From: Smithellaceae bacterium
GTDB lineage: Bacteria > Desulfobacterota > Syntrophia > Syntrophales > Smithellaceae
Length of the DNA: 64,000 nucleotides
Assembly (NCBI GenBank): GCA_035416785.1
Contig: DAOLNX010000002.1
Location: 867-64,866, forward strand
Direction of reading: 5' to 3'
The notes under the pieces are model-generated. The model had not been told where the DNA came from. It ran no database searches and saw only the letters and a program-made list of their open reading frames with translations. Positions within the stretch are counted from its first letter, which is position 1, and every line of letters begins with the position of its first letter. Below, piece by piece: positions 32,545-43,873 of the stretch. A program made the position numbers and the translations under genes.

Positions 32545-34956
32545 CTATGCTTTGTCCAATTCTTTCTTAACGGCCAATCCAAGTTTCTCAATAACGTAGG
32601 GCTTTTTCACATAGGCACCGGCGCCCAGTCTCTGTGCGGAACGAACCCGATCCGTTTCGGAAAAACCGCTCACGATAATCGCCTTCTGTGTAGGGTTGAT
32701 TTCCAGGATTCGCTGATAAGTGTCAAGACCATCGATCCCGGGATCCATGATCATGTCCAGGACAACCAAATCTGCCTTGTGGGTTTTGAGATATTCCACT
32801 GCTTCTTCGCCTCCCGCAACCATGTGAACATCGTATTGGAGTTTGCGGAGCATGGTGGATGCCAATTCGCGTTGTCCAGGGACATCATCCACAACGAGAA
32901 TGGATTCTCCCTTTCCTCGGTATTCGGAAATATCGATGAATTCCTTTTCCGTGTCTTTCTCCTGTTTTGTTACCGGGAAATACAAAGTGAATATCGTTCC
33001 TTTTTCCAGTTCACTTTGGACATCAATGTAGCCGTTGTGGTCCTTTACGGTTCCCCAGACCACGGCAAGTCCAAGTCCTGTTCCGCTTCTCCCCATGACC
33101 TTCTTTGTGTAGAAAGGTTCGAAGATCCGGTTGGTGTCCTGTGCCGATATGCCTTCCCCCGTGTCGGAAACGGTAAGCACGACATAATGATCCTCCCGGA
33201 CTTCATCATAACCATGCACGGGACGATCCAGGTATTTGCTGCTTGTTTTCAAGGAAATCAGGCCGCCTTTGGGCATGGCTTCGGCGGCATTGGAAATGAG
33301 ATTGGCAATGGTTTTTTCAAGGTGGACTTTTGACCCCATGATATTGGGAAGCTCTGCTTGGCACTCCGTTTGTATTTGCAGATGGGGATGATAGGATGAC
33401 AACTTTTCTAATTCCGGGCTTTTTTGATAATCCAAAAGGATGGTGTTCAGATTGACGGAGCTTGTTTTCTGGACGCCTCTTCTGGCCAATGTCAGCAGAT
33501 CCTGAACAATAGCTGCCGCCTTCTGACTGGCGTCCTTGATATGAGCAACATGCGGTCTGATCGGGCTCGATTGGTCGATGTCATCCAGGATGATTTCCGA
33601 ATACCCCACCATGATGCCGAGCACATTATTGAGATCGTGCGCAACCCCGCCTGCCAGCCTTCCCAATGCCTCCATTTTTTCCGCGCGATTCAGCCGTTGA
33701 TAAAGTTGGAGCTTTTCTTCTTCAGCCGCTTTTCTTTCCGTGATATCAATCACCTGGATGAGAGATCTCATTTTGCCTGCTGAATCCATATAGACCGCGC
33801 TTAAGACCTCGCCAAAACGTTTTGAACCGTTTTTCCGGATAAAGGAAAATTCATAATGAGACGGGACATCTTCTCCACGTTGACGGCGCTGGTATCTTTC
33901 GAGTCCTACTAACTGGCTTTCTTCCGTCAGAAGAAAAGCGAAGTTTCTGCCGAGTAGTTCTTGCTTGGAATAACCAGTGATTCTGCATAATTCTTCATTC
34001 ACATAAATATAACGGGCGGCGTCATCCACAATGGCAATACCGGTAAGGGATCTTTCAACCGCGGAGCGGAATTTTTCCTCACTTTCCCGAATCATTTGAT
34101 CCGCACGCCTTCGCTCGGTAATGTCGATCAAATTGCCCACGACTTTGATCGGGCGGTTGCCTTCCAGCACCGGTTGGGCCATGGTCTGAATCCAGATACG
34201 ACGGCCATCGGCAGTGTTGAGTGGAAACACCAGGTCATAGGGTTGACCTTCCTGTACGCAACGTTGAAAAGCTGCCTGGATAACCGGACGGTCTTCAGGG
34301 TCATAGCAGGCCAGACTGCGTTTGATATGTTCGGGGGAACCTGCCTCAAATTCGTCGGACAAAAAACCGTGAATGCGGTATGTTTCGTTTGTCCAGGTCA
34401 TGGTCTGCCGCATTACATCCCATTCCCAGCCGCCGATTTTTGCCAGGCGCTGTGTTTCATCCAGCAGATTTCTGCTGTGACGCAAGGTCTCTTCCACGCG
34501 TTTGCGTTTTGTGATGTCTCGGCAGGCAGCTACACGAACCTGCTTTCCATGGTAGGACATTTCCCTTACCTGGATTTCTTCGATGAATGTAGAGCCGTCC
34601 TTCCGTCTTGCGCAAACTTCATAAGGTCCTGTGTCGCCGTGATTAATTTTTTCCAGCATGATCGCCTGATATTCAGGAACAATCAGATCATAGGCGCTCA
34701 TGCGTTTTAACTCTTCGAGTGTATATCCGAACATCTCCACAAAATGAGAGTTCACATCAATTGTTTTGCCGTGGTCATGAATGAGAATGCCCTCGTAACT
34801 GGCTTCCGAGAGCGTGCTGTAGCGCTCTTCGCTTTCCCGAAGAGCCTCCTGATCACCTTGAAAAAGCGTTCTGGAGTGTTCCAGTTCCTGAATTCTCTTC
34901 CTGAGTGCGGCGTTCTCTTGGATAAGTTCTTGATAGTTATCGGTATGATCGGACAT
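32545..34956 (-). CDS. Hybrid sensor histidine kinase (coiled coil, three PAS, HisKA, HATPase_c, receiver)
   Basis: 803 aa. Three PAS-like blocks, each ending in DIT(K/E)RK(R/A). H-box GGVAHDLNNVLG. DTGEGI…GTGLGL. Receiver ILVVDD…LDMIMDPGIDG…K. Confidence 0.9.
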   Translation of the reverse strand: MSDHTDNYQELIQENAALRKRIQELEHSRTLFQGDQEALRESEERYSTLSEASYEGILIHDHGKTIDVNSHFVEMFGYTLEELKRMSAYDLIVPEYQAIMLEKINHGDTGPYEVCARRKDGSTFIEEIQVREMSYHGKQVRVAACRDITKRKRVEETLRHSRNLLDETQRLAKIGGWEWDVMRQTMTWTNETYRIHGFLSDEFEAGSPEHIKRSLACYDPEDRPVIQAAFQRCVQEGQPYDLVFPLNTADGRRIWIQTMAQPVLEGNRPIKVVGNLIDITERRRADQMIRESEEKFRSAVERSLTGIAIVDDAARYIYVNEELCRITGYSKQELLGRNFAFLLTEESQLVGLERYQRRQRGEDVPSHYEFSFIRKNGSKRFGEVLSAVYMDSAGKMRSLIQVIDITERKAAEEEKLQLYQRLNRAEKMEALGRLAGGVAHDLNNVLGIMVGYSEIILDDIDQSSPIRPHVAHIKDASQKAAAIVQDLLTLARRGVQKTSSVNLNTILLDYQKSPELEKLSSYHPHLQIQTECQAELPNIMGSKVHLEKTIANLISNAAEAMPKGGLISLKTSSKYLDRPVHGYDEVREDHYVVLTVSDTGEGISAQDTNRIFEPFYTKKVMGRSGTGLGLAVVWGTVKDHNGYIDVQSELEKGTIFTLYFPVTKQEKDTEKEFIDISEYRGKGESILVVDDVPGQRELASTMLRKLQYDVHMVAGGEEAVEYLKTHKADLVVLDMIMDPGIDGLDTYQRILEINPTQKAIIVSGFSETDRVRSAQRLGAGAYVKKPYVIEKLGLAVKKELDKA

Positions 34957-35031: not shown

Positions 35032-37167
35032 TCAGGATCTGTCGAAAACCTCCTTGATGACTTCAGAAAGTTTTTCCAGGGTGTATGGTTTCTGGATAAA
35101 GGCATTGACGCCCTGCGCCAGGGCGAAGGTCACTCTTTCGTCCTGTTTGAACCCCGAGGTCATGATGACCTTGACGCGGCTATCGATTTTTTTCATTTCC
35201 AGATACACCTGTTCTCCGGATTTTTGCGGCATCACCAGGTCCAGAAGAACACACGCGATTTCCTGATATCGTTTGCCGAAGATCTGCAAAGCCTGCAGGC
35301 CATCAGAAGCGGTAAGCACTTCATAGCCGCATTTTTTTAGAATGGCGCCTGCTGCCTGCCTCATGATTTCTTCATCATCGACGACGAGAATGATTCCCTT
35401 GCCTTGCGGCAGCTCAAAGCATTTTTCTTGCGTCTCTCGAATTTCTCCGTTATGAAGCACCGGTATATAAACATCGAAAGTGGTTCCCTGACCTTCTTCA
35501 GAATAAATATTGATAAATCCGGAATGTTGCTGAACAATGTTGTAAACCATGGAAAGGCCCAAGCCCGTGCCTTTGCCCTTTTCCTTGGTGGTAAAAAAGG
35601 GGACGAATATTTTGGCGATGGTTTGTGGCGTCATCCCGACACCCGTATCTTCAACCGAAATGCGCCAGTAGTCGATTTGTTTGGCCTCTGGACGGATTTT
35701 ACAAAAATCAGCGTCTGCGCGTACCTGGTCCAAACTGATCGTCAGAGTGCCGCCTTGCGGTTCCTGCGCGGACCGCATGATGGTCATGGCGTGGCCGGCA
35801 TTGACGCAGAGATTGAGAAGCGCCTGTTCCATATGGGTGGCGTCGGCCTTGGCCATGGCTTTTTCCGGGGGAACCTGCATATGGATATTAATGGATTTAT
35901 CAAAAGTGTTTTTAATGATGTTTTGAACATTCCATAGGGTGGTCTTCAAATCCATGGGGTAAAATTGAGTGTCCTGCTTGCGCGACAGGGTTAAAAGCTG
36001 CTGCACCATTTCCACGGCCCGCTGACCGGCCTTGTCCATGATATTCAACCATTTTTTCAGTTTTTCCGGATCGATTTGGCGGTTATTCTGCACTTCGAAC
36101 TGCAAAATGGAAAGCGTGCTGACAATGCCACCCAGGACATTGTTGAAATCATGGGCCAGGCCTCCGGCTAGAGTGCCGATGGTTTCCATTTTTTGTGCCT
36201 GAAGAAGCTGCTCTTCTAATGCATCTCTTTCCATGTCTGAAAGAATTCTTGCAACATGATCGGCAAAGATCACGCCAAATCCGATTTCATCTTCTTCCCA
36301 TACTTTGGGGGTGTTGTGCTCAAACGATACAAATCCTGCCACTTTACCTTTCAGAATAATGGAAACCATCAGAGCGGAGGCAATACCGCCGGGACGGAAA
36401 TAATTTTCATAAAGGCCGTTCATGAGCGGATCGGTTGCAACATCCGGCTGTAGGATGATTCTTTGTGCCTGAATTGCCTTGAAAAATTCCGGACAATCAT
36501 CTTCCTGCAGGAGAACATCCGTAAGATGCCTTTGTTCTGAAGAAATGAAAATGTCGGAGGATTTCAGACTTTTTCCGTTATTTTTCATCTGCCAGATGCC
36601 GCAACGGGAAACCTCCAGTGCGGCAAGGGCATTTTCGGAAAAGATATGAAAAACCATGCTAATGCTTTTGAAAGGGTCATTGCTTGTCAAACCGAATTCT
36701 GAGGACGCTTTCAGTTGTTTGGCCAGTCGGTTTTTCGAGCATAGTAATGTATGCTCGGAAACGGCCAGGTCAAAAACATTTTGCACAAGACCTTCGGCGT
36801 ATTCATTCAGTTGATTCGTAATCTGTTCGAATTCGGCACGGCTCCGGGCGTGAATCAGGAGTAAATCTTCCGCCGGATCGTGATGGAGATAAAGATGATA
36901 CTTTTCGTCATGAATCTTGATCTTCAGCGGTGTGCTGGCTGGATGGTGAAAACGACCGGCGATTCTTTCTTCGAGGCTTTCCCTGTCTTTTTCTGAAACG
37001 AAGATGCAGGGCAGGATGTCATCCAGATTCCGGAGATCAGGAATGTGAAACATATTCCGGAAGGCGCTGTTTGACAATGCTTCCCTCGTTTCCGGATTGA
37101 TCAGCAAAAGCGCCTCGATCGGATCATTTTGAAGCAAGTGCAGGGATAGAGAGCGTTTTTTCTTCAT
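35032..37167 (-). CDS. Hybrid sensor histidine kinase (N-terminal PAS-like region, GAF, HisKA, HATPase_c, receiver)
   Basis: 711 aa. GAF-like segment (…GKVAGFVSFEH…). H-box GGLAHDFNNVLGG. N-box NLCVNAGHA. DTGVGM…GTGLGLS. Receiver ILVVDDEE…LDLVMP…K. Confidence 0.9.
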   Translation of the reverse strand: MKKKRSLSLHLLQNDPIEALLLINPETREALSNSAFRNMFHIPDLRNLDDILPCIFVSEKDRESLEERIAGRFHHPASTPLKIKIHDEKYHLYLHHDPAEDLLLIHARSRAEFEQITNQLNEYAEGLVQNVFDLAVSEHTLLCSKNRLAKQLKASSEFGLTSNDPFKSISMVFHIFSENALAALEVSRCGIWQMKNNGKSLKSSDIFISSEQRHLTDVLLQEDDCPEFFKAIQAQRIILQPDVATDPLMNGLYENYFRPGGIASALMVSIILKGKVAGFVSFEHNTPKVWEEDEIGFGVIFADHVARILSDMERDALEEQLLQAQKMETIGTLAGGLAHDFNNVLGGIVSTLSILQFEVQNNRQIDPEKLKKWLNIMDKAGQRAVEMVQQLLTLSRKQDTQFYPMDLKTTLWNVQNIIKNTFDKSINIHMQVPPEKAMAKADATHMEQALLNLCVNAGHAMTIMRSAQEPQGGTLTISLDQVRADADFCKIRPEAKQIDYWRISVEDTGVGMTPQTIAKIFVPFFTTKEKGKGTGLGLSMVYNIVQQHSGFINIYSEEGQGTTFDVYIPVLHNGEIRETQEKCFELPQGKGIILVVDDEEIMRQAAGAILKKCGYEVLTASDGLQALQIFGKRYQEIACVLLDLVMPQKSGEQVYLEMKKIDSRVKVIMTSGFKQDERVTFALAQGVNAFIQKPYTLEKLSEVIKEVFDRS

Positions 37168-37242: not shown

Positions 37243-37644
37243 TTAGTCCTGACTGAATGTAATCAATTCAGGAAAAAGTTTCTGGATGACCGGAAACGTA
37301 CTTTCCTGCCAGGGAATATCGCTGTTTTGAACAATTCTTACCTTGTAGCCCTGGTCACTGGGTAAGCTTTTGGATTTCATCAGCCAGCTGATGATTGTCT
37401 TGATTCCGCTGGAGTTCACATAAGAGAGCTCTCTGAAATCGACAGATAGGATTTTGACTTTCTGGGCGATGGCCTCATCGTGTATCCGAAGCAAATAAGG
37501 CAGAATGAATTCGGAAGGATCTCTCATATCAATTTCTCCTGAAATGGCCAGAAGAATGCCATTTTCGGCTTCCTGTTCCTGAAGATCAGAAATGACCACT
37601 TTTGTTTTTTCGACTTCCAGAGGTTCGATATGGAGTTTATTCAT
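37243..37644 (-). CDS. STAS-like anti-sigma-antagonist-type protein (candidate phospho-acceptor of the adjacent kinase)
   Basis: 133 aa. VDFRELSYVNSSGIKTIISWL resembles the SpoIIAA/RsbV loop (…F(M/I)DSSGLG…). The start overlaps the kinase gene stop by 8 nt. Confidence 0.55.
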   Translation of the reverse strand: MNKLHIEPLEVEKTKVVISDLQEQEAENGILLAISGEIDMRDPSEFILPYLLRIHDEAIAQKVKILSVDFRELSYVNSSGIKTIISWLMKSKSLPSDQGYKVRIVQNSDIPWQESTFPVIQKLFPELITFSQD

Positions 37645-38131
37645 GGCTCGCCTCCCATTTTTCTATTGGAATGTTCGCAGTGATCTTCACGATACCGTTT
37701 TCAATGCTTGTGCTGATGTCCGCTTGGCATTCATAACGGATACGAGCCAGACCGAGAGCGCTTTTGCCATTGATAGCAATCGAACTGTCCTTCATTCTCT
37801 TGATGTAGGCGTCCAGGGGCGGGTTCTCGAAGAGTTCCTGAAGGCAACTTTGCAGGTCCGCGATATTTTCCTGTGAAGCGTGATTGCTCACGATGACTTT
37901 GATCATTTTTTGCGCACTGGTGACGTAAATATTCAGTTCGCTCCCCTCCAGATCGGAAAATTTGACGGCATTTTCGATGAGTTCATTCACAGCCATGGCA
38001 ATGCTGGTGGCCTGCTTTTTATTTTCAAGAGTGATGGCCATGAAGTTTTCCACAAATGTACGCACGGTTGATATGTATGTCCATTTGGGCCCGAATTTTA
38101 ATTCTACGTAAATCTTCGATTCCTTTTCCAT
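37637..38131 (-). CDS. Small GHKL-type serine kinase / anti-sigma-factor-like protein (RsbW/SpoIIAB/SiaB-like)
   Basis: About 164 aa from MEKESKIYVELKF (ATG, complement of 38129-38131). N-box-like AVNELIENAVKFS and G2-like SALGLARI. I saw no clear DxGxG G1 box. The upstream part of the track ORF overlaps the PP2C gene, so I discarded it. Confidence 0.55.
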   Translation of the reverse strand: MEKESKIYVELKFGPKWTYISTVRTFVENFMAITLENKKQATSIAMAVNELIENAVKFSDLEGSELNIYVTSAQKMIKVIVSNHASQENIADLQSCLQELFENPPLDAYIKRMKDSSIAINGKSALGLARIRYECQADISTSIENGIVKITANIPIEKWEASHE

Positions 38132-38160
38132 GCCCTTTCCCCTTTTTTCATTTATGCGTT

Positions 38161-39756
38161 TTACTGCTGTTTCAGACGTTTTACGGCGATCAGAGTTATA
38201 TCGTCCTGCTTTTGGTAAGGCGCCAATTCCTTCAGAATCCCGTCTTTGATGTCGTCGGGAGATTGATTGCCCAGTTGCTTGAAAACATTTTTCAGGCCAC
38301 TTTTGGAAAAGCGGTCGCCTTGGGTGCTTACGGCGTCCGTAATGCCGTCCGTGTATAACAGCATAACATCTCCCGCATGGAGAATCAAAGATGAATCTCG
38401 CAGCATGGCGCCGATTTCCTGCCTGAGTCCCAGCCACATTCCTTCTGTTTTAATCAATTCCACTTCCCGGTCTTCCGCCCTGTATATCATGATATCCTCG
38501 TGCAGTCCGGAATAGATGAGCCGTCCGTTTTCGTGAATGGACAGAATGACTAAAGTAATAAACTTGTCTTCTCCCAAAGCTTCAATATTTTCGGTCAGTA
38601 CAAGGTTGATATCTTCAATCATTTTGGACGGAGCGATGTCCGGCGATCGGGAAAGCACGGTTTTGATGGATGTCTGCAGCATCATCATGATGAGGCCCGC
38701 CGGGACACCGTGGCCGGACACGTCGCCAATGACAATCCAGTCTCTGCCCGCAGCATTGATTACGTCATAGTAATCGCCGCCCACTTCGTCGGCCGGCGTC
38801 ATGTGCACGGCCACCTCATACCCGGATAAACGCGGAGCCTGGGGGATGAGTGCAGTCTGGATTTTTTTGGCCAGCTTCATTTCGCCCCACAGGGCATCCC
38901 TCGTTTCCACAAGCTCGGAGTTGGTGTTCTTAATGTCGGTCAAATACTTTTTAAAGTATCGGGCAAATTCTCCGATCTCGTCTTTAGACTCGATTTGATC
39001 AAACAGACTGAAGTCAACTGAAGCCACAGAGCTCTGGCGAAGAATTCGAATCAACTTGGTGACGGGTTCCATGATGAATCGTGAAATCGTCAGGCTGATG
39101 AAGATGGAAAGGACCAGGGCGCTGAAAACAAATCCCACTGCCAGATAAAGAAAATTCGCAAAGCTGCGTATGGAATGTTCATGGCTTTCCCGGCTCAGAT
39201 CGTTTTGAATGGTCATGAGTTTGTTGAGGTTTTCATAAAGAATTTCAAATTCATCCTCGCCCATTTGCAGCATCACGGACGCGGTGGTAATGTCGTTTCC
39301 CTCCAGTGCGGAATCCTTGGCATAGATGGATCTCGTTTTATACTCTTCATGATTTTTTAAGATGGAAAGAAAGGCGTTTCTTTCTTTTTCGGTCAGTACA
39401 TCGGATTGCAAAATGTCCTTGATCAGCTTTGCCGATTCGTCTAGGAGCTCTATCTGGCGGTTGAGAAGCTTTTCGACGATTTTCCAGTCATAGCCGGTCA
39501 GTGCCCATACGTATCCCTTATACATGTTTGCGTGAATAACGTCAATTTTTCTAACAATTTCAGAGCTTTGCTTATAAATGCGGAAACGCTTGTTAAAGAT
39601 GTCGTCAATCAGTGCTCTTTGTTGAACCAGTCCGATGATAAAGAGGATGCACAGAACCAAAAGAAAAAATATTCCGATATATGCGGCAACAAAAACTTTT
39701 TTACGCACAGAAAGGCTATTGATGAAATGAGCTGTCCAGGACGGTACCGTATTCAT
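38161..39756 (-). CDS. Membrane-bound PP2C (SpoIIE/RsbU-type) phosphatase with a periplasmic helical sensor and HAMP
   Basis: 531 aa. Two transmembrane segments flank a helical domain of about 170 aa. HAMP region (ISRFIMEPVTKLIRIL). PP2C core GGDYYDVI…VIGDVSGHGVPAGLIMM…LLYTDGITD. Confidence 0.85.
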   Translation of the reverse strand: MNTVPSWTAHFINSLSVRKKVFVAAYIGIFFLLVLCILFIIGLVQQRALIDDIFNKRFRIYKQSSEIVRKIDVIHANMYKGYVWALTGYDWKIVEKLLNRQIELLDESAKLIKDILQSDVLTEKERNAFLSILKNHEEYKTRSIYAKDSALEGNDITTASVMLQMGEDEFEILYENLNKLMTIQNDLSRESHEHSIRSFANFLYLAVGFVFSALVLSIFISLTISRFIMEPVTKLIRILRQSSVASVDFSLFDQIESKDEIGEFARYFKKYLTDIKNTNSELVETRDALWGEMKLAKKIQTALIPQAPRLSGYEVAVHMTPADEVGGDYYDVINAAGRDWIVIGDVSGHGVPAGLIMMMLQTSIKTVLSRSPDIAPSKMIEDINLVLTENIEALGEDKFITLVILSIHENGRLIYSGLHEDIMIYRAEDREVELIKTEGMWLGLRQEIGAMLRDSSLILHAGDVMLLYTDGITDAVSTQGDRFSKSGLKNVFKQLGNQSPDDIKDGILKELAPYQKQDDITLIAVKRLKQQ

Positions 39757-39857: not shown

Positions 39858-40331
39858 TTAATTTACCTTATAATATCCGCTTAAGAATATGATATTGTCG
39901 ATTTTTTCAAAATACGTGACTTTGGGCATGGCTTTTTTTCGTGTGGGGTGCGCCCAGCGGTATTCCACCCATCCTTTGCCATCCTTTTTCGCCTTGCTGC
40001 ATATTTCCCGAATAAAATATTTTCCGTCCGGATCCTTGACGTTGTACCACTCCTTGCCGGGAATAGTTCTATTAATTCCATGAGCCAGGACGATGGCCTT
40101 GTTCTTGAAATCCGTCTGGATGACCCACAGATACAGTTCACCTTTCTGCAGCATGCCCTTATCGGTGATTGCTGTCATGGTCTTCGATTCGCCATTTTCC
40201 TTGTAAAACGCAATGCCCTTTCTGACCAAAGAAACCGCTTCTTCTTTCTGATCAGCCCATGCCGCTGAAACAAACAACATACTGCTGAACATGAAAGAAA
40301 TAACCAGATTTCTGATGATTGCTTTTATCAT
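39858..40331 (-). CDS. Secreted single-Cache (sCache_2-like) domain protein
   Basis: 157 aa. Signal peptide …VSAAWA/DQ. …GELYLWVIQTD…VLAHG…DPDGKYFIREI…GKGWVEYRWAHP… is typical of single Cache sensor domains. Confidence 0.65.
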   Translation of the reverse strand: MIKAIIRNLVISFMFSSMLFVSAAWADQKEEAVSLVRKGIAFYKENGESKTMTAITDKGMLQKGELYLWVIQTDFKNKAIVLAHGINRTIPGKEWYNVKDPDGKYFIREICSKAKKDGKGWVEYRWAHPTRKKAMPKVTYFEKIDNIIFLSGYYKVN

Positions 40332-40441: not shown

Positions 40442-40481
40442 CAAGAAAAACTTGAGGGCATTTCCCACCGGAAATGCCCTC
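40442..40481 (-). terminator. Rho-independent terminator of the 971-aa kinase gene
   Basis: Perfect 12-bp stem GAGGGCATTTCC / GGAAATGCCCTC with a 4-nt loop. On the minus strand it is followed by AAGTTTTTCTT. It overlaps the stop codon by 2 nt. Confidence 0.8.
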
Positions 40482-43242
40482 ATGACTGTGAGCGGTCTAC
40501 ACTTTGCGTGCCAAATACTTCCACGAGCAGTTCCGCCAGCTTTTCCAGCGTGTAGGGCTTCTGGATAAAGGCATTCACGCCCTGTTGCATAGCAAACGTA
40601 ACTCTTTCATCCTGCTTAAAGCCGGAGGCCATGATCACCTTGACCCTATGGTCGATTTTTTTCATTTCCACATAGACCTGTTCTCCGGATTTTTGAGGCA
40701 TGACCAGATCTAGAAGAACGCCATCAATTTCCTCATGCCTTTTTCTGAAGATTTCCATGGCTTGCACGCCGTCGCTGACGGCGATAACCTCGTAACCGCA
40801 TTTTCTCAATATGGTGTCGGCGGTGTGCCGCATCACTTCTTCGTCATCCACCACCAGAATGATCCCCCGGCCGCGGGGAAGTTCAAAATATGTTTCTTTG
40901 GTTTCGGGCGGAGCTTCGCCCGAGTAAACGGGAATATAGGCATCAAAAGTCGAGCCTGTGCCGATTTCGGAATAAATATTCATAAAACCTTCATGTTGAT
41001 GAACAATGTTGTAAACCATCGAGAGTCCGAGACCTGTTCCCTTGCCTTTTTCCTTGGTGGTGAAAAACGGGACAAAAACTTTGGAAATGGTTTGCTGGCT
41101 CATGCCGATTCCCGTATCTTCGACGGATATTCGCCAGTAGTCGATTAATTTTGCCTCAGGTCGGATTTTGCAGAATGACTCGTCCGCCCTGATTTTTTCC
41201 AAGCTTATCGTTAAAACGCCTCCTTTGGGATCTTTTTCCGGACGCATAATGGTCATAGCGTGGCCTGCGTTGACACAGAGATTCAGCAATACTTGTTCCA
41301 TCTGTGTCGCGTCGGCGTGAGCCATGGCTTTTTCGCTTGGAAGGTTTACTCGAATCTCGATGGATTTGTCGAATGTATTATCACATATTTTTTTCACATT
41401 GGAGATCGTGGTATTAAGATCTACGGGGGCAAACTGCGTTTCTCTTCTGCGGGATAGAGTCAAAAGCTGCTGAACCATGTCAACTGCCCGCTGGCCGGAT
41501 TTGTCCATGATGTTTATGTATTTCTTTAGTTTTTCCGGATCGAGGGATTTGTTCTGCTGAAGCTCGAATTGCAAAATGGACAGAGTGCTGACAATGCCTC
41601 CCAGAACATTGTTGAAATCATGGGCTAGGCCTCCGGCCAGAGTACCGATGGTTTCCATTTTTTGTGCCTGAAGCAGTTGTTCTTCCATCCGAATTTTATC
41701 GGTGACATCGCGGATGCTGCCTCTTAAGCCCGTCAGACGCCCTTCGTCGTATGTAGCAATGCAGTTGTCTTCTCCAAAAATATGGTAGCCGTCCCGGCGG
41801 GGGATTTTATGAATGGAGAGAAACTTTGTCTGTCGTTTTTCAATATTTCTGGATACTTCCGTAAAGCCGGTATCGCCGATCAATTCCCGGATGGTGATCC
41901 CTTTTTCCAAGTCTTTCGGTGAATGACCGGTCAGGCGAAGTCCCGCCTGATTCAGATAGGTGACCTTCATGTCGGCATCCGCTTCGTAAATGATATCCGG
42001 AGTATTATCCGCCAGAGATCGGTATCGCTCCTCGCTTTCCCGGAGGGCTTTTGCCACCTGTTTGTGTTCCAGGATCTCGTCATGCAGCGAGCGGCTGTAC
42101 TGCTGGAGTTTTTCCATGAAGATATTGAAATACTTGGCCAACCTTCCTAATTCATCATCGGAGGGAGAACGCATGCGGACGGAGAAATCATCCGTGACGC
42201 CTGTTGAAAAGTATCCGATGAGCTTCTTGACAGGCTTGGTGATGGCGGAACTGATCCAGATCGTCATGATAAATACAAGGGTGAAAGCCAGCAAAGAGAA
42301 GAAAATAATCATATTTTTCAAATGCTTCAGCGGGGCATAAAATTCGTCCGTATAGCCGGATGCGGCGACAATCCAGTCAAGTTCGGGAATGTAGTTGAGC
42401 ATGACAATTTTTTCGCGAGGCTTTTTTTCGCCGGGGTTATGCCACTGATAGACAAGTTTTCCGACTTTCTTCTTGACGATATTTGCGCCGGCCGCCCGCA
42501 AATCCGGATCCGGCAAGGTGAAGACATTGCCTCCCTGCAGAGAGGGATGGATAATGATATTGCCTTTGGAATCCACAATATAGGAATAACCGGTTTTCCC
42601 GAAGCGCATCGACAAGACGCTTTCTCGCAGATCGCTGACGCTGATCAGGTGAATGAATTCTGAACGGTAGGAAGAAACGGAGATGATCCAATCCCAGGGC
42701 TGAAAGTGTGTCATATAAAGAGCCTTCGGCTTCATCTCTTCGTCTCCGGGATTTTTCCATTCGTAGGTCAGAAAACCTTCTTTGCGTTTCATCTGTTCAC
42801 GGACAAAAGCGTGATTCGTGAAACTTCGCCCTTCAACACCCGGAATCGGATGAACAATAGCGATGCCGTCTTTATTGGCGCAATAGATATAGCCCGTTTT
42901 TCCGATGACCTGGCTGAAAAGAACGTCACGAGATCTTCTTTTGGCCTCTTCCTCTGTCATCAAACCTTTTCGGTATTGGTTGTAGAATTTTTCGATGATC
43001 ATTTTGTTGGCTTCGGCCGATGATCGCAAATAGTTCTTGATGGAGACATCTGCCGATGTTTTTACCGTGTTCAGAAGCATTTCCGTTGAGGAGTTCAGTT
43101 GGTTTTCAATACTTTCTTCCAGGGTTTTTTGCGCGACATGATAAATGGCAAAGCCGATCAAAGCGGTGACCAGAATCAAGGTTCCGCATGTGCTGAGCAG
43201 GAGTTTATAGCGAACGGGAAGATCGGCGAAAAAACGTTTCAT
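40480..43242 (-). CDS. Hybrid sensor histidine kinase (double Cache, HAMP, PAS, HisKA, HATPase_c, receiver)
   Basis: Transmembrane segment, then dCache (GYIYCANKDGIAIVHP … GYSYIVDSKGNIIIHP), a second transmembrane segment, HAMP, PAS, H-box GGLAHDFNNVLGG and a receiver. I chose the start MKRFFADL (complement of 43240-43242); the track ORF extends to 43395. Confidence 0.9.
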   Translation of the reverse strand: MKRFFADLPVRYKLLLSTCGTLILVTALIGFAIYHVAQKTLEESIENQLNSSTEMLLNTVKTSADVSIKNYLRSSAEANKMIIEKFYNQYRKGLMTEEEAKRRSRDVLFSQVIGKTGYIYCANKDGIAIVHPIPGVEGRSFTNHAFVREQMKRKEGFLTYEWKNPGDEEMKPKALYMTHFQPWDWIISVSSYRSEFIHLISVSDLRESVLSMRFGKTGYSYIVDSKGNIIIHPSLQGGNVFTLPDPDLRAAGANIVKKKVGKLVYQWHNPGEKKPREKIVMLNYIPELDWIVAASGYTDEFYAPLKHLKNMIIFFSLLAFTLVFIMTIWISSAITKPVKKLIGYFSTGVTDDFSVRMRSPSDDELGRLAKYFNIFMEKLQQYSRSLHDEILEHKQVAKALRESEERYRSLADNTPDIIYEADADMKVTYLNQAGLRLTGHSPKDLEKGITIRELIGDTGFTEVSRNIEKRQTKFLSIHKIPRRDGYHIFGEDNCIATYDEGRLTGLRGSIRDVTDKIRMEEQLLQAQKMETIGTLAGGLAHDFNNVLGGIVSTLSILQFELQQNKSLDPEKLKKYINIMDKSGQRAVDMVQQLLTLSRRRETQFAPVDLNTTISNVKKICDNTFDKSIEIRVNLPSEKAMAHADATQMEQVLLNLCVNAGHAMTIMRPEKDPKGGVLTISLEKIRADESFCKIRPEAKLIDYWRISVEDTGIGMSQQTISKVFVPFFTTKEKGKGTGLGLSMVYNIVHQHEGFMNIYSEIGTGSTFDAYIPVYSGEAPPETKETYFELPRGRGIILVVDDEEVMRHTADTILRKCGYEVIAVSDGVQAMEIFRKRHEEIDGVLLDLVMPQKSGEQVYVEMKKIDHRVKVIMASGFKQDERVTFAMQQGVNAFIQKPYTLEKLAELLVEVFGTQSVDRSQS

Positions 43243-43333
43243 GAAGTTTTCCTTTGCAAATATCATAAGATATTCAGAAAGATCTGTCAAGCCAGGCGGT
43301 GAGGGACTTGAAAAAGAAGGATGTATCAAATAA

Positions 43334-43873
43334 TCAATAACTTGCGAGTTCCGCGGATAGTTTGGACTCGATGTCTTTTGCTGTTGCGGAGTCAAGGGAT
43401 TCGGTCGCCACCTGATCAGGGATCATGTCCAGTAATTGTTTTGCAAGCGTTTTGCGATCCCCTGAATTTTCTTTGGCGGCCAGCCATGCCTCCATTTTTT
43501 TGTTAAATAAAAGCTTGTTGACCAGATCGGCTAATTGTTTATCCTGGCCGTCAGGATTCAGTTTAGCGATGTTGCGCAGTACCTGCCATTCGAATTCAGA
43601 AACATAGTCAGGACGGTCGGTTATCGGTCCGGTTACCGGCTTTCCTTGCATCACTTCCGGTGTTGCCGCTTTCTGATGATCCAGATATTCTTTTGCCTGG
43701 CGGTGGGTGGCCGTTGGAACTTCTGAACCGGTTGCCGAAACCATTTCATCGACATTATTATCCTGTGGATATTGTAGAAAAAGAAAGGCAATAGCAGCAA
43801 TTCCCAGAAGCATCATTGAAATCAAAAGAATTTTTTTTCTTGAAAGCCTATTATTTGTGCGACGATCGGACAT
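43334..43873 (-). CDS. Membrane-anchored hypothetical protein (possible lipase helper, by position only)
   Basis: 179 aa with an N-terminal transmembrane anchor (ILLISMMLLGIAAIAFLFL) and a helical, charged C-terminal part. I recognised no motif. Confidence 0.4.
   Translation of the reverse strand: MSDRRTNNRLSRKKILLISMMLLGIAAIAFLFLQYPQDNNVDEMVSATGSEVPTATHRQAKEYLDHQKAATPEVMQGKPVTGPITDRPDYVSEFEWQVLRNIAKLNPDGQDKQLADLVNKLLFNKKMEAWLAAKENSGDRKTLAKQLLDMIPDQVATESLDSATAKDIESKLSAELASY

Follow-up and report, generated by a model that had tools for sequence, protein, structure and literature searches.

The textbook role of a partner switch is to regulate a sigma factor, and a few such switches control diguanylate cyclases. 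What such a switch controls when neither kind of gene is present in its cluster is the question raised by a locus in a 64,000-nucleotide stretch of DNA from a Smithellaceae bacterium (GenBank assembly GCA_035416785.1, contig DAOLNX010000002.1, positions 867 to 64,866 of the forward strand), hereafter called the window. The source genome is a metagenome-assembled genome (MAG) that is 82% complete; all coordinates given here are window positions, and all genes of the module lie on the minus strand. The initial annotation described a trio of linked genes for a membrane PP2C phosphatase, a small GHKL kinase and a STAS-like protein, followed by neither a sigma factor nor a diguanylate cyclase gene, and supposed that the output could be the neighbouring hybrid histidine kinase or kinases. 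It was found that the cluster indeed lacks both a sigma factor gene and a diguanylate cyclase gene. Throughout this paper, K refers to the GHKL protein, S to the STAS-fold protein, HK711 to the hybrid histidine kinase of 711 amino acids (aa) encoded directly downstream of S, and NTD to the N-terminal domain of this kinase. Based on sequence comparison, predicted structures and analogy, the locus probably encodes a partner switch of the SiaABCD kind that acts on HK711 and not on a sigma factor, with contact made via S or K.

The evidence that bears most directly on the output comes from HK711 (35032-37167, minus strand), a cytoplasmic protein with the layout NTD-GAF-HisKA-HATPase_c-receiver. 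Pfam matches were obtained to GAF, HisKA (32.2 bits), HATPase_c (80 bits) and Response_reg (77.2 bits), the last three all above their gathering scores, and the H-box histidine, the N, G1 and G2 boxes and the receiver aspartate are represented by the motifs HDFNN, NAGHAM, EDTGVGM, GTGLGL and LLDLVMP. The NTD (36688-37167, minus strand; about residues 1 to 155-160) precedes the GAF domain and is composed of an alpha/beta part of ~105 residues, which is faintly PAS-like, and a long helix that follows it. The domain has no Pfam match and no sequence relative in the PDB, and a faint PAS match (E 0.026) was obtained for the NTD in one HD-GYP version. It is homologous (E about 1e-50) to the N-termini of HD-GYP proteins whose genes immediately follow a K-S pair. 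When the NTD profile was searched against 1.84 billion representative proteins, just three confident clusters were recovered, one of them a 714-aa kinase and two of them HD-GYP proteins, together with a weak fourth match; the additional one of these two HD-GYP clusters, when checked, was likewise found to lie directly after a K-S pair (161 aa and 129 aa). Every examined NTD protein follows a K-S pair. In the tree of K and S together, the NTD-linked pairs form one clade (SH-aLRT, the SH-like approximate likelihood ratio test, 96), in which the kinase set and the HD-GYP set are sister groups. One adaptor domain is thus found on two catalytic outputs, always with one K-S lineage, and this is the strongest argument for HK711 as the target and for the NTD as the site at which the switch acts. 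The switch probably controls HK711 directly, and the NTD is proposed, from these sequence comparisons, as the docking and receiver site. The supposition about the neighbouring kinases is therefore strengthened for the downstream 711-aa kinase, the NTD being restricted to proteins encoded after K-S; it does not stand for the kinases of 971 aa and 803 aa on either side, which were ruled out as switch parts because they are absent from orthologous loci.

K and S were found to be part of a larger unit than the trio first described. The PP2C phosphatase gene (38161-39756, minus strand; 531 aa) is followed by a spacer of 29 nucleotides, which holds the purine-rich ribosome-binding site GGGGAAAGGG, and by the ATG of K at 38131. 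The K gene (37637-38131, minus strand; 164 aa) overlaps the S gene (37243-37644, minus strand; 133 aa) by 8 nucleotides, the shared letters being ATGAATAA, and a gap of 75 nucleotides separates S from HK711, so that the co-directional arrangement and all the spacings in the initial annotation are correct. The open reading frame (ORF) of 266 aa that was listed for K is an upstream extension running into the PP2C gene; the 164-aa start is supported by the length of the K homologues, which ranges from 158 to 180 aa. A gene for a secreted sCache protein (39858-40331, minus strand; 157 aa; sCache_2 match, 1.5e-15) lies 101 nucleotides upstream of the PP2C gene. Further upstream, the 971-aa kinase gene has at its stop a strong intrinsic-terminator-like hairpin (40453-40482, minus strand; a 13-bp stem with 7 GC pairs and a T tail), which marks the upstream limit of the module's transcription unit; from the sCache gene through to the end of HK711, nothing similar was detected. 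Since the hairpin precedes the sCache gene and none comparable lies inside, sCache-PP2C-K-S-HK711 is likely a transcription unit, as judged from sequence features, and it possibly runs on into the gene of the 803-aa PAS kinase. The three genes of the trio are therefore all retained, in a unit of five that includes the secreted sCache protein and HK711. These are real genes and not chance ORFs, as every one of them has numerous homologues and other genomes show the same arrangement.

This recurrence was investigated in a scan of one genome per species, which gave 66 related loci, 65 of them usable; the ORFs of each locus were called, domains were labelled by iterated searches seeded with the window proteins, and representatives were checked against Pfam. 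The nearest loci belong to Smithella and Syntrophaceae MAGs (79-85% identity), the next to Leptospirales and other Spirochaetota, and then come Acidobacteriota, Desulfobacterales, Myxococcota and one MAG of a cyanobacterial lineage. S directly follows K in 64 of the 65 loci, the order K-then-S is found in all related loci, and about 42/65 have a PP2C gene no more than 6 kb from the pair. In the window, and likewise in 12 further loci that represent two phyla, a kinase of the HK711 type is encoded directly downstream of S. In the Syntrophaceae relatives, the five genes are present in the order of the window and the flanks differ, with lipA upstream and asd downstream of HK711 and without the 971-aa and 803-aa kinases; in Leptospirales, K, S and the kinase form one operon, and the sCache-PP2C pair is convergent behind it. 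The five genes thus survive rearrangement and inter-phylum transfer. Conservation of the neighbourhood in relatives, on which the initial proposal depended, was thus observed across phyla and after rearrangement.

The gene that follows S varies between lineages, which suggests a general plug-in regulatory module. Kinases of the layout NTD-GAF-HisKA-HATPase-receiver occupy this position in seven species-level loci, plus the window and metagenome contigs, and NTD-HD-GYP proteins in three species-level loci, plus two metagenome contigs. An unrelated HisKA-HATPase-receiver-receiver kinase is encoded there in six loci, all from Desulfobacterales. The position is taken by a membrane methyl-accepting chemotaxis protein (MCP) and then a PP2C protein of ~720 aa in ten loci, by a Zn-ribbon-Ser/Thr kinase-receiver protein in seven (Acidobacteriota and Polyangia), and by a GGDEF protein in 2/65. 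A candidate docking motif common to all output classes was rejected: QNxFDLEIS of the NTD and KQNTLLEIT of the Desulfobacterales kinases look alike by eye, but the profile-profile probability is 0.5% and the register is off by one residue.

Several points weigh against HK711 as the target. An output gene does not always adjoin the pair: in about 19 of the 65 loci no signalling gene is obvious after S, and in 11 the only one is a PP2C gene. Gene linkage cannot separate an output from a co-input, and HK711, with its own GAF sensor, could act upstream of the switch or beside it. No docking motif common to the output classes was found, and all NTD-bearing loci come from metagenome assemblies. K, since its G1 box is missing, could be a non-catalytic binder like UsfX of Mycobacterium tuberculosis.

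The alternative that survives best, which we nevertheless regard as unlikely, is that HK711 is an input: the signal of its GAF domain and its phosphorelay would set the state of K, S and PP2C, or would converge with the switch on a shared target elsewhere. The sensor domain of HK711 itself is consistent with such a role, and in most known couplings the phosphorelay acts on the switch (HptB-HsbR-HsbA, SypE-SypA and RsbK-RsbY). The HptB-HsbR-HsbA system of Pseudomonas and the SypE-SypA system of Vibrio fischeri resemble the present locus in that His-Asp signalling is joined to a Ser/Thr partner switch and the outputs are not sigma factors (for example the HsbD cyclase or biofilm control). In those systems, however, the phosphorelay controls the switch via a receiver fused to the PP2C phosphatase or the kinase, whereas the phosphatase of the window has its own membrane sensor and a histidine kinase stands at the output position. 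As this phosphatase has a periplasmic sensor and a HAMP linker and no receiver, there is no evident route by which a phosphorelay signal could reach it. The hcyA-D cluster of Nostoc punctiforme, described genetically, encodes an anti-sigma antagonist, an RsbU-like phosphatase, an anti-sigma factor as well as a hybrid histidine kinase that has multiple sensors; HcyC failed to bind those sigma factors that were tested, and activation of the phosphatase by the hybrid kinase is suggested by the authors (PMC9127174), which would favour an input role. Both that cluster and the present one combine a partner switch with a GAF-containing hybrid histidine kinase and lack a cognate sigma factor. The Nostoc proteins are nevertheless of the canonical RsbV/RsbW/RsbU types, the gene order is different, the kinase is proposed there as the input, and neither a shared docking domain nor cross-lineage swapping of outputs was reported. 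An input role for HK711 is further opposed by the other lineages, which place HD-GYP, GGDEF and MCP proteins, all typical outputs, at the position of HK711, and by the NTD, which heads both kinase and HD-GYP modules and so fits an input domain of those proteins.

In sequence, K is distant from the anti-sigma kinases. It scores 26.2 bits against HATPase_c_2 (PF13581), just below the cut-off of 27.4, and its best NCBIfam match is the slr1658 superfamily (NF047703; 68.2 bits, E 5.8e-19, cut-off 100). Some homologues carry DUF6272, and no paper mentioning this family was returned by the literature search. The AlphaFold2 model of K (pLDDT, the predicted local distance difference test score, 87) adopts a GHKL (Bergerat) fold of the single-domain anti-sigma type, and the top Foldseek matches are SpoIIAB (1tid_A, E 2.9e-07), RsbW (6m36_A), UsfX (8ih8) and SiaB (6kko_A). 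The sequence profile of K gave at most marginal N-box matches in the PDB; it is the predicted fold that relates K to SpoIIAB, RsbW and SiaB. Among 46 homologues, E50, E53, N54, N83, G127 and E134 are invariant, and R24, K57, Y58, L128, R130 and R132 are nearly so; E50, E53, N54, K57 and Y58 form an N-box of the histidine-kinase-like NAxKY type, and G127 is the G2-like glycine. In an hhalign profile alignment to SpoIIAB, R24, E50, N54 and N83 of K fall on R20, E46, N50 and D81. By this alignment, K retains the antagonist-docking arginine, the catalytic glutamate and the Mg-binding asparagine.

The G1 box DxGxG, which had seemed to be absent from K, is indeed missing. VSNHA is present at its position, with xNxA across the family, and N83 (codon 37883-37885), which replaces the adenine-binding aspartate of G1, is the asparagine that is invariant in the 46 homologues. 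In some other GHKL proteins, an Asp-to-Asn change at the G1 position abolishes ATP binding. The invariance of the pocket residues argues for a functional pocket, and the missing G1 aspartate calls for caution; from the sequence and the model, we infer that K is an active kinase. The opposite possibility, that K is a pseudokinase, would mean that S is phosphorylated by another kinase or never and that K is a stoichiometric partner or scaffold between S and the NTD. The loss of the G1 aspartate and glycines in 46/46 homologues and the presence of the kinase-inactive UsfX among the fold matches speak for this possibility, and in Acidobacteriota the Hanks-type Ser/Thr kinase-receiver protein after S could supply kinase activity. 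A dead pocket, however, would not need a catalytic glutamate, an Mg-binding asparagine, an N-box Lys-Tyr and a G2-like glycine that are invariant or nearly invariant, and K is accompanied by PP2C and the invariant serine of S in most lineages with no other kinase nearby. K as a pseudokinase is therefore considered improbable, and K as the kinase of S is preferred.

The predicted acceptor of this kinase, S, also reaches the known families by its fold. The best NCBIfam match of S is the slr1659 superfamily (NF047705; 47.2 bits, E 2.3e-12, cut-off 100). No match to the Pfam STAS families (PF01740 and PF13466) was obtained at E<=0.01, and S scores below the curated STAS cut-offs (17.2 vs 53.45 bits for TIGR00377; 18.4 vs 114.75 for TIGR02886) and below that of the SiaC family PF09345 (16.2 vs 24.5 bits); weak matches to SiaC and SpoIIAA were detected. 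The profile of S matches TM1442 (3.7e-05) and SpoIIAA, and its NSSG is aligned on the DSAG/DSSG phosphorylation loops. Residues G36, N77, S78, G80, I81, W112 and Q113 are invariant in 42 homologues, among them those of the motif N77-S78-x-G80-I81, in which the codon of S78 is 37411-37413. In the AlphaFold2 model (pLDDT 92), helix alpha2 begins at residue 78, and the top folds are anti-sigma antagonists (4qtp, SpoIIAA 1tid_B, RsfB 8ih8_A and RsbV 6m36_B), with SiaC structures (6kko, 7e6g and 6k4f) also among the matches. S78 is thus the predicted phosphorylation site. The motifs originally read from the sequence (GDVSGHG, YTDG, NELIENAVKFS, ALGLARI and YVNSSGIK) are all present. The assignment of the two small proteins to the Rsb or Sia type of partner switch was upheld for the folds of K and S, both of which reach the expected families with the serine of S aligned to the phospho-serine; it was not upheld for the closest sequence families, which are slr1658/slr1659 and neither RsbW/RsbV nor SiaB/SiaC.

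The third alternative, a conventional anti-sigma switch in which K sequesters a sigma factor encoded elsewhere, S and PP2C control the release and the kinase is co-regulated or incidentally linked, is the least probable of the three: the best structural matches of K are the anti-sigma factors SpoIIAB, RsbW and UsfX, other contigs of the genome carry at least four genes of the sigma-70 family and about 30/65 loci lack a separate signalling output beside S, but when the four sigma factors of this genome were used as search seeds, a sigma-70-family gene turned up no more than 10 kb from K-S in just 1 of ~65 loci, incidental linkage explains neither the restriction of the NTD to proteins after K-S nor the joint movement of the five genes across phyla, and the order K-then-S is the reverse of rsbV-rsbW and spoIIAA-spoIIAB. 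This sole sigma-70-family gene (L041:12706-13581), in a Spirochaetes MAG, is located 1.8 kb downstream of S and would fit such a switch. A sigma factor is accordingly not a conserved partner of the pair. The RsbU-RsbV-RsbW-SigB and SpoIIE-SpoIIAA-SpoIIAB-SigF systems of Bacillus share with the locus the logic of PP2C, STAS and GHKL proteins, the top structural matches, the position of the phospho-serine and the arginine equivalent to R20. In contrast to these systems, the cluster has no sigma factor, the kinase gene precedes the STAS gene, the G1 box is absent, and the Pfam cut-offs for STAS and HATPase_c_2 are not reached.

For HK711 as the target, the mechanistically closest model is SiaABCD of Pseudomonas aeruginosa, which has the same order of membrane HAMP-PP2C, GHKL kinase, STAS-fold phosphoprotein and signalling enzyme, a non-sigma output, and two proteins, SiaB and SiaC, whose structures were matched by the predicted folds of K and S. 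The two systems differ in several respects: the scores to the SiaA and SiaC models are below the cut-offs, the acceptor is a serine in the NSSG loop and not Thr68 as in SiaC, a hybrid histidine kinase that bears a PAS-like NTD takes the output position in place of the GGDEF enzyme SiaD, and an sCache protein is added. It was reported that unphosphorylated SiaC binds the coiled-coil stalk helix of SiaD via the phospho-site at the N-terminus of alpha2 (PMC8457831), and that phosphorylation of SiaC by SiaB blocks SiaD binding (PMC8457831; bioRxiv 10.1101/674879). By analogy with this binding of SiaC to the SiaD stalk, the favoured view is that S directly contacts the NTD together with its long helix. 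Established non-sigma outputs of partner switches include SiaC-SiaD, HsbA-HsbD, BgrV-BgrR, SypA and HmpWUV.

In sequence, as judged from the profile scores, the slr1658 and slr1659 superfamilies are related to K and S distantly and below threshold. Slr1658 and Slr1659 of Synechocystis sp. PCC 6803 are likewise encoded by an adjacent pair and stand for the best-scoring curated families, and the relative from the cyanobacterial lineage (L076) also has the order PP2C-K-S; the scores of K (68.2 bits) and S (47.2 bits), however, are both under 100. Only genetic studies of Slr1658 have been published, which described an iron-starvation recovery phenotype and pgr5 de-repression and stated that the signalling chain was unknown (PMC7555055; PMC6525291).

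The proposed mechanism begins in the periplasm, where a signal would be bound by the secreted sCache protein and/or the four-helix bundle of the phosphatase and would set the activity of PP2C via HAMP. K would phosphorylate S at Ser78, PP2C would take the phosphate off, and the phosphorylation state of S would select the bound partner. In the favoured, SiaC-like version, unphosphorylated S would bind the NTD and stalk of HK711 and change its autokinase activity; in an RsbW-like version, K would hold the NTD until displaced by unphosphorylated S. HK711 would then combine the switch input with the signal sensed by its GAF domain, and the phosphate would pass via its own receiver to an Hpt protein and a response regulator encoded elsewhere; the genome has 16 Hpt matches, none of them on this contig.

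A more inclusive reading takes these elements together: K-S would be a portable serine switch that is plugged into signalling enzymes and gates the autophosphorylation of HK711 through the NTD, with K active despite the lack of a G1 box. It is offered tentatively, as its chances are somewhat short of even. In this reading, sister lineages would have joined the same PAS-like and stalk adaptor to an HD-GYP phosphodiesterase, and the invariant asparagine in place of the adenine-binding aspartate of K might change its nucleotide preference. The points that distinguish the system are the divergent pair of a G1-less K and a STAS protein, the histidine kinase at the output position, the dedicated adaptor domain and the lineage-variable outputs. 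If the proposal is true, a sensor phosphatase and a serine phosphoprotein gate a histidine kinase, by which periplasmic and GAF signals are merged into one phosphorelay, and this would be the first defined case in which a partner switch uses a specific docking domain to act upstream of a His-Asp phosphorelay. The locus also provides a testable handle on the widespread slr1658/slr1659/DUF6272 family in the form of an acceptor serine, an odd active-site residue and a candidate docking domain of 155 residues on two enzymes.

The phosphatase, proposed as the input of the switch, is composed of a first transmembrane helix, a periplasmic four-helix bundle, a second transmembrane helix, a HAMP-like linker and a PP2C/SpoIIE domain. 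Its Pfam matches are SpoIIE (1.9e-37) and 4HB_MCP_1 (5.4e-07), and several NCBIfam models match the HAMP-like linker over residues 196-291, in agreement with the periplasmic helical sensor, HAMP and PP2C domains that were read from the sequence at first. The metal-binding motifs are GDVSGHG, YTDG and DDITL. The protein is not a SiaA equivalog (NF038263), with a score of 73.9 bits vs a cut-off of 700. The sCache protein has an N-terminal signal peptide ending in AWA/DQ, and its gene adjoins the PP2C gene in 13/13 loci with an NTD-GAF kinase, the rearranged ones included; from this linkage, it is probably a periplasmic ligand-binding partner of the phosphatase sensor domain. The pairing of a stand-alone sCache_2 protein with a 4HB-PP2C protein is reminiscent of sensor kinases on which periplasmic binding proteins dock, the partner here being a phosphatase.

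The distribution of the module is narrow among close relatives. K is present in 3/37 genomes of the same genus and in 0/24 other genera of the order, and the sister clade of the K and S sequences lies in Spirochaetota (Leptospirales), which together indicate that the cassette is accessory and horizontally moved. The position of the sister clade suggests that all five genes were transferred as a unit between Desulfobacterota and Spirochaetota.

Of the flanking kinase genes, the upstream one encodes a dCache-HAMP-PAS hybrid kinase of 971 aa (40480-43395, minus strand) and the downstream one, 75 nucleotides after HK711, a PAS hybrid kinase of 803 aa (32545-34956, minus strand); neither is conserved with the module. 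In the transmitter and receiver, the 971-aa kinase is 76% identical to HK711 over 400 residues (40480-41688 vs 35032-36219), compared with 46% overall identity between HK711 and its Leptospirales orthologues and 32% between the HK711 transmitter and the 803-aa kinase. Because of this identity and the absence of the gene from the loci of the closest relatives (it is missing at the orthologous loci L004-L006, L012 and L013), the 971-aa kinase looks like a recent copy or the result of gene conversion, which would let a second sensor feed the downstream relay of HK711. The 803-aa kinase gene may be co-transcribed with HK711.

Some of the related loci have features of their own. In many Spirochaetales, the MCP encoded after S is short (~370 aa), is membrane-anchored and has the MCPsignal domain only, and the ~720-aa PP2C follows it; such loci are L028-L030, L038, L039, L042, L046, L051, L063 and L073. 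The MCP at this position suggests that the switch is linked there to chemotaxis-type signalling arrays. In Acidobacteriota and Polyangia (L054:1879-3351, L062:10863-12320 and five similar loci), the protein after S combines a Zn-ribbon, a Hanks-type kinase and a receiver, and the PP2C gene lies immediately upstream of K; it is unusual for a eukaryote-like kinase with a fused receiver to stand at the output position. The sole cultured isolate among the matches is Anaeromyxobacter oryzisoli SG63 (L074, NZ_JALCZA010000047.1), in which a HAMP-PP2C protein of 623 aa precedes K and S, K is about 33% identical to that of the window, and the 959-aa ORF after S, without a Pfam match, may be a spurious high-GC ORF. 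Finally, a Spirochaetales MAG (L075:134-8681) carries a tandem duplicate of the core genes, PP2C (1091 aa)-K-S followed by PP2C (1084 aa)-K-S.

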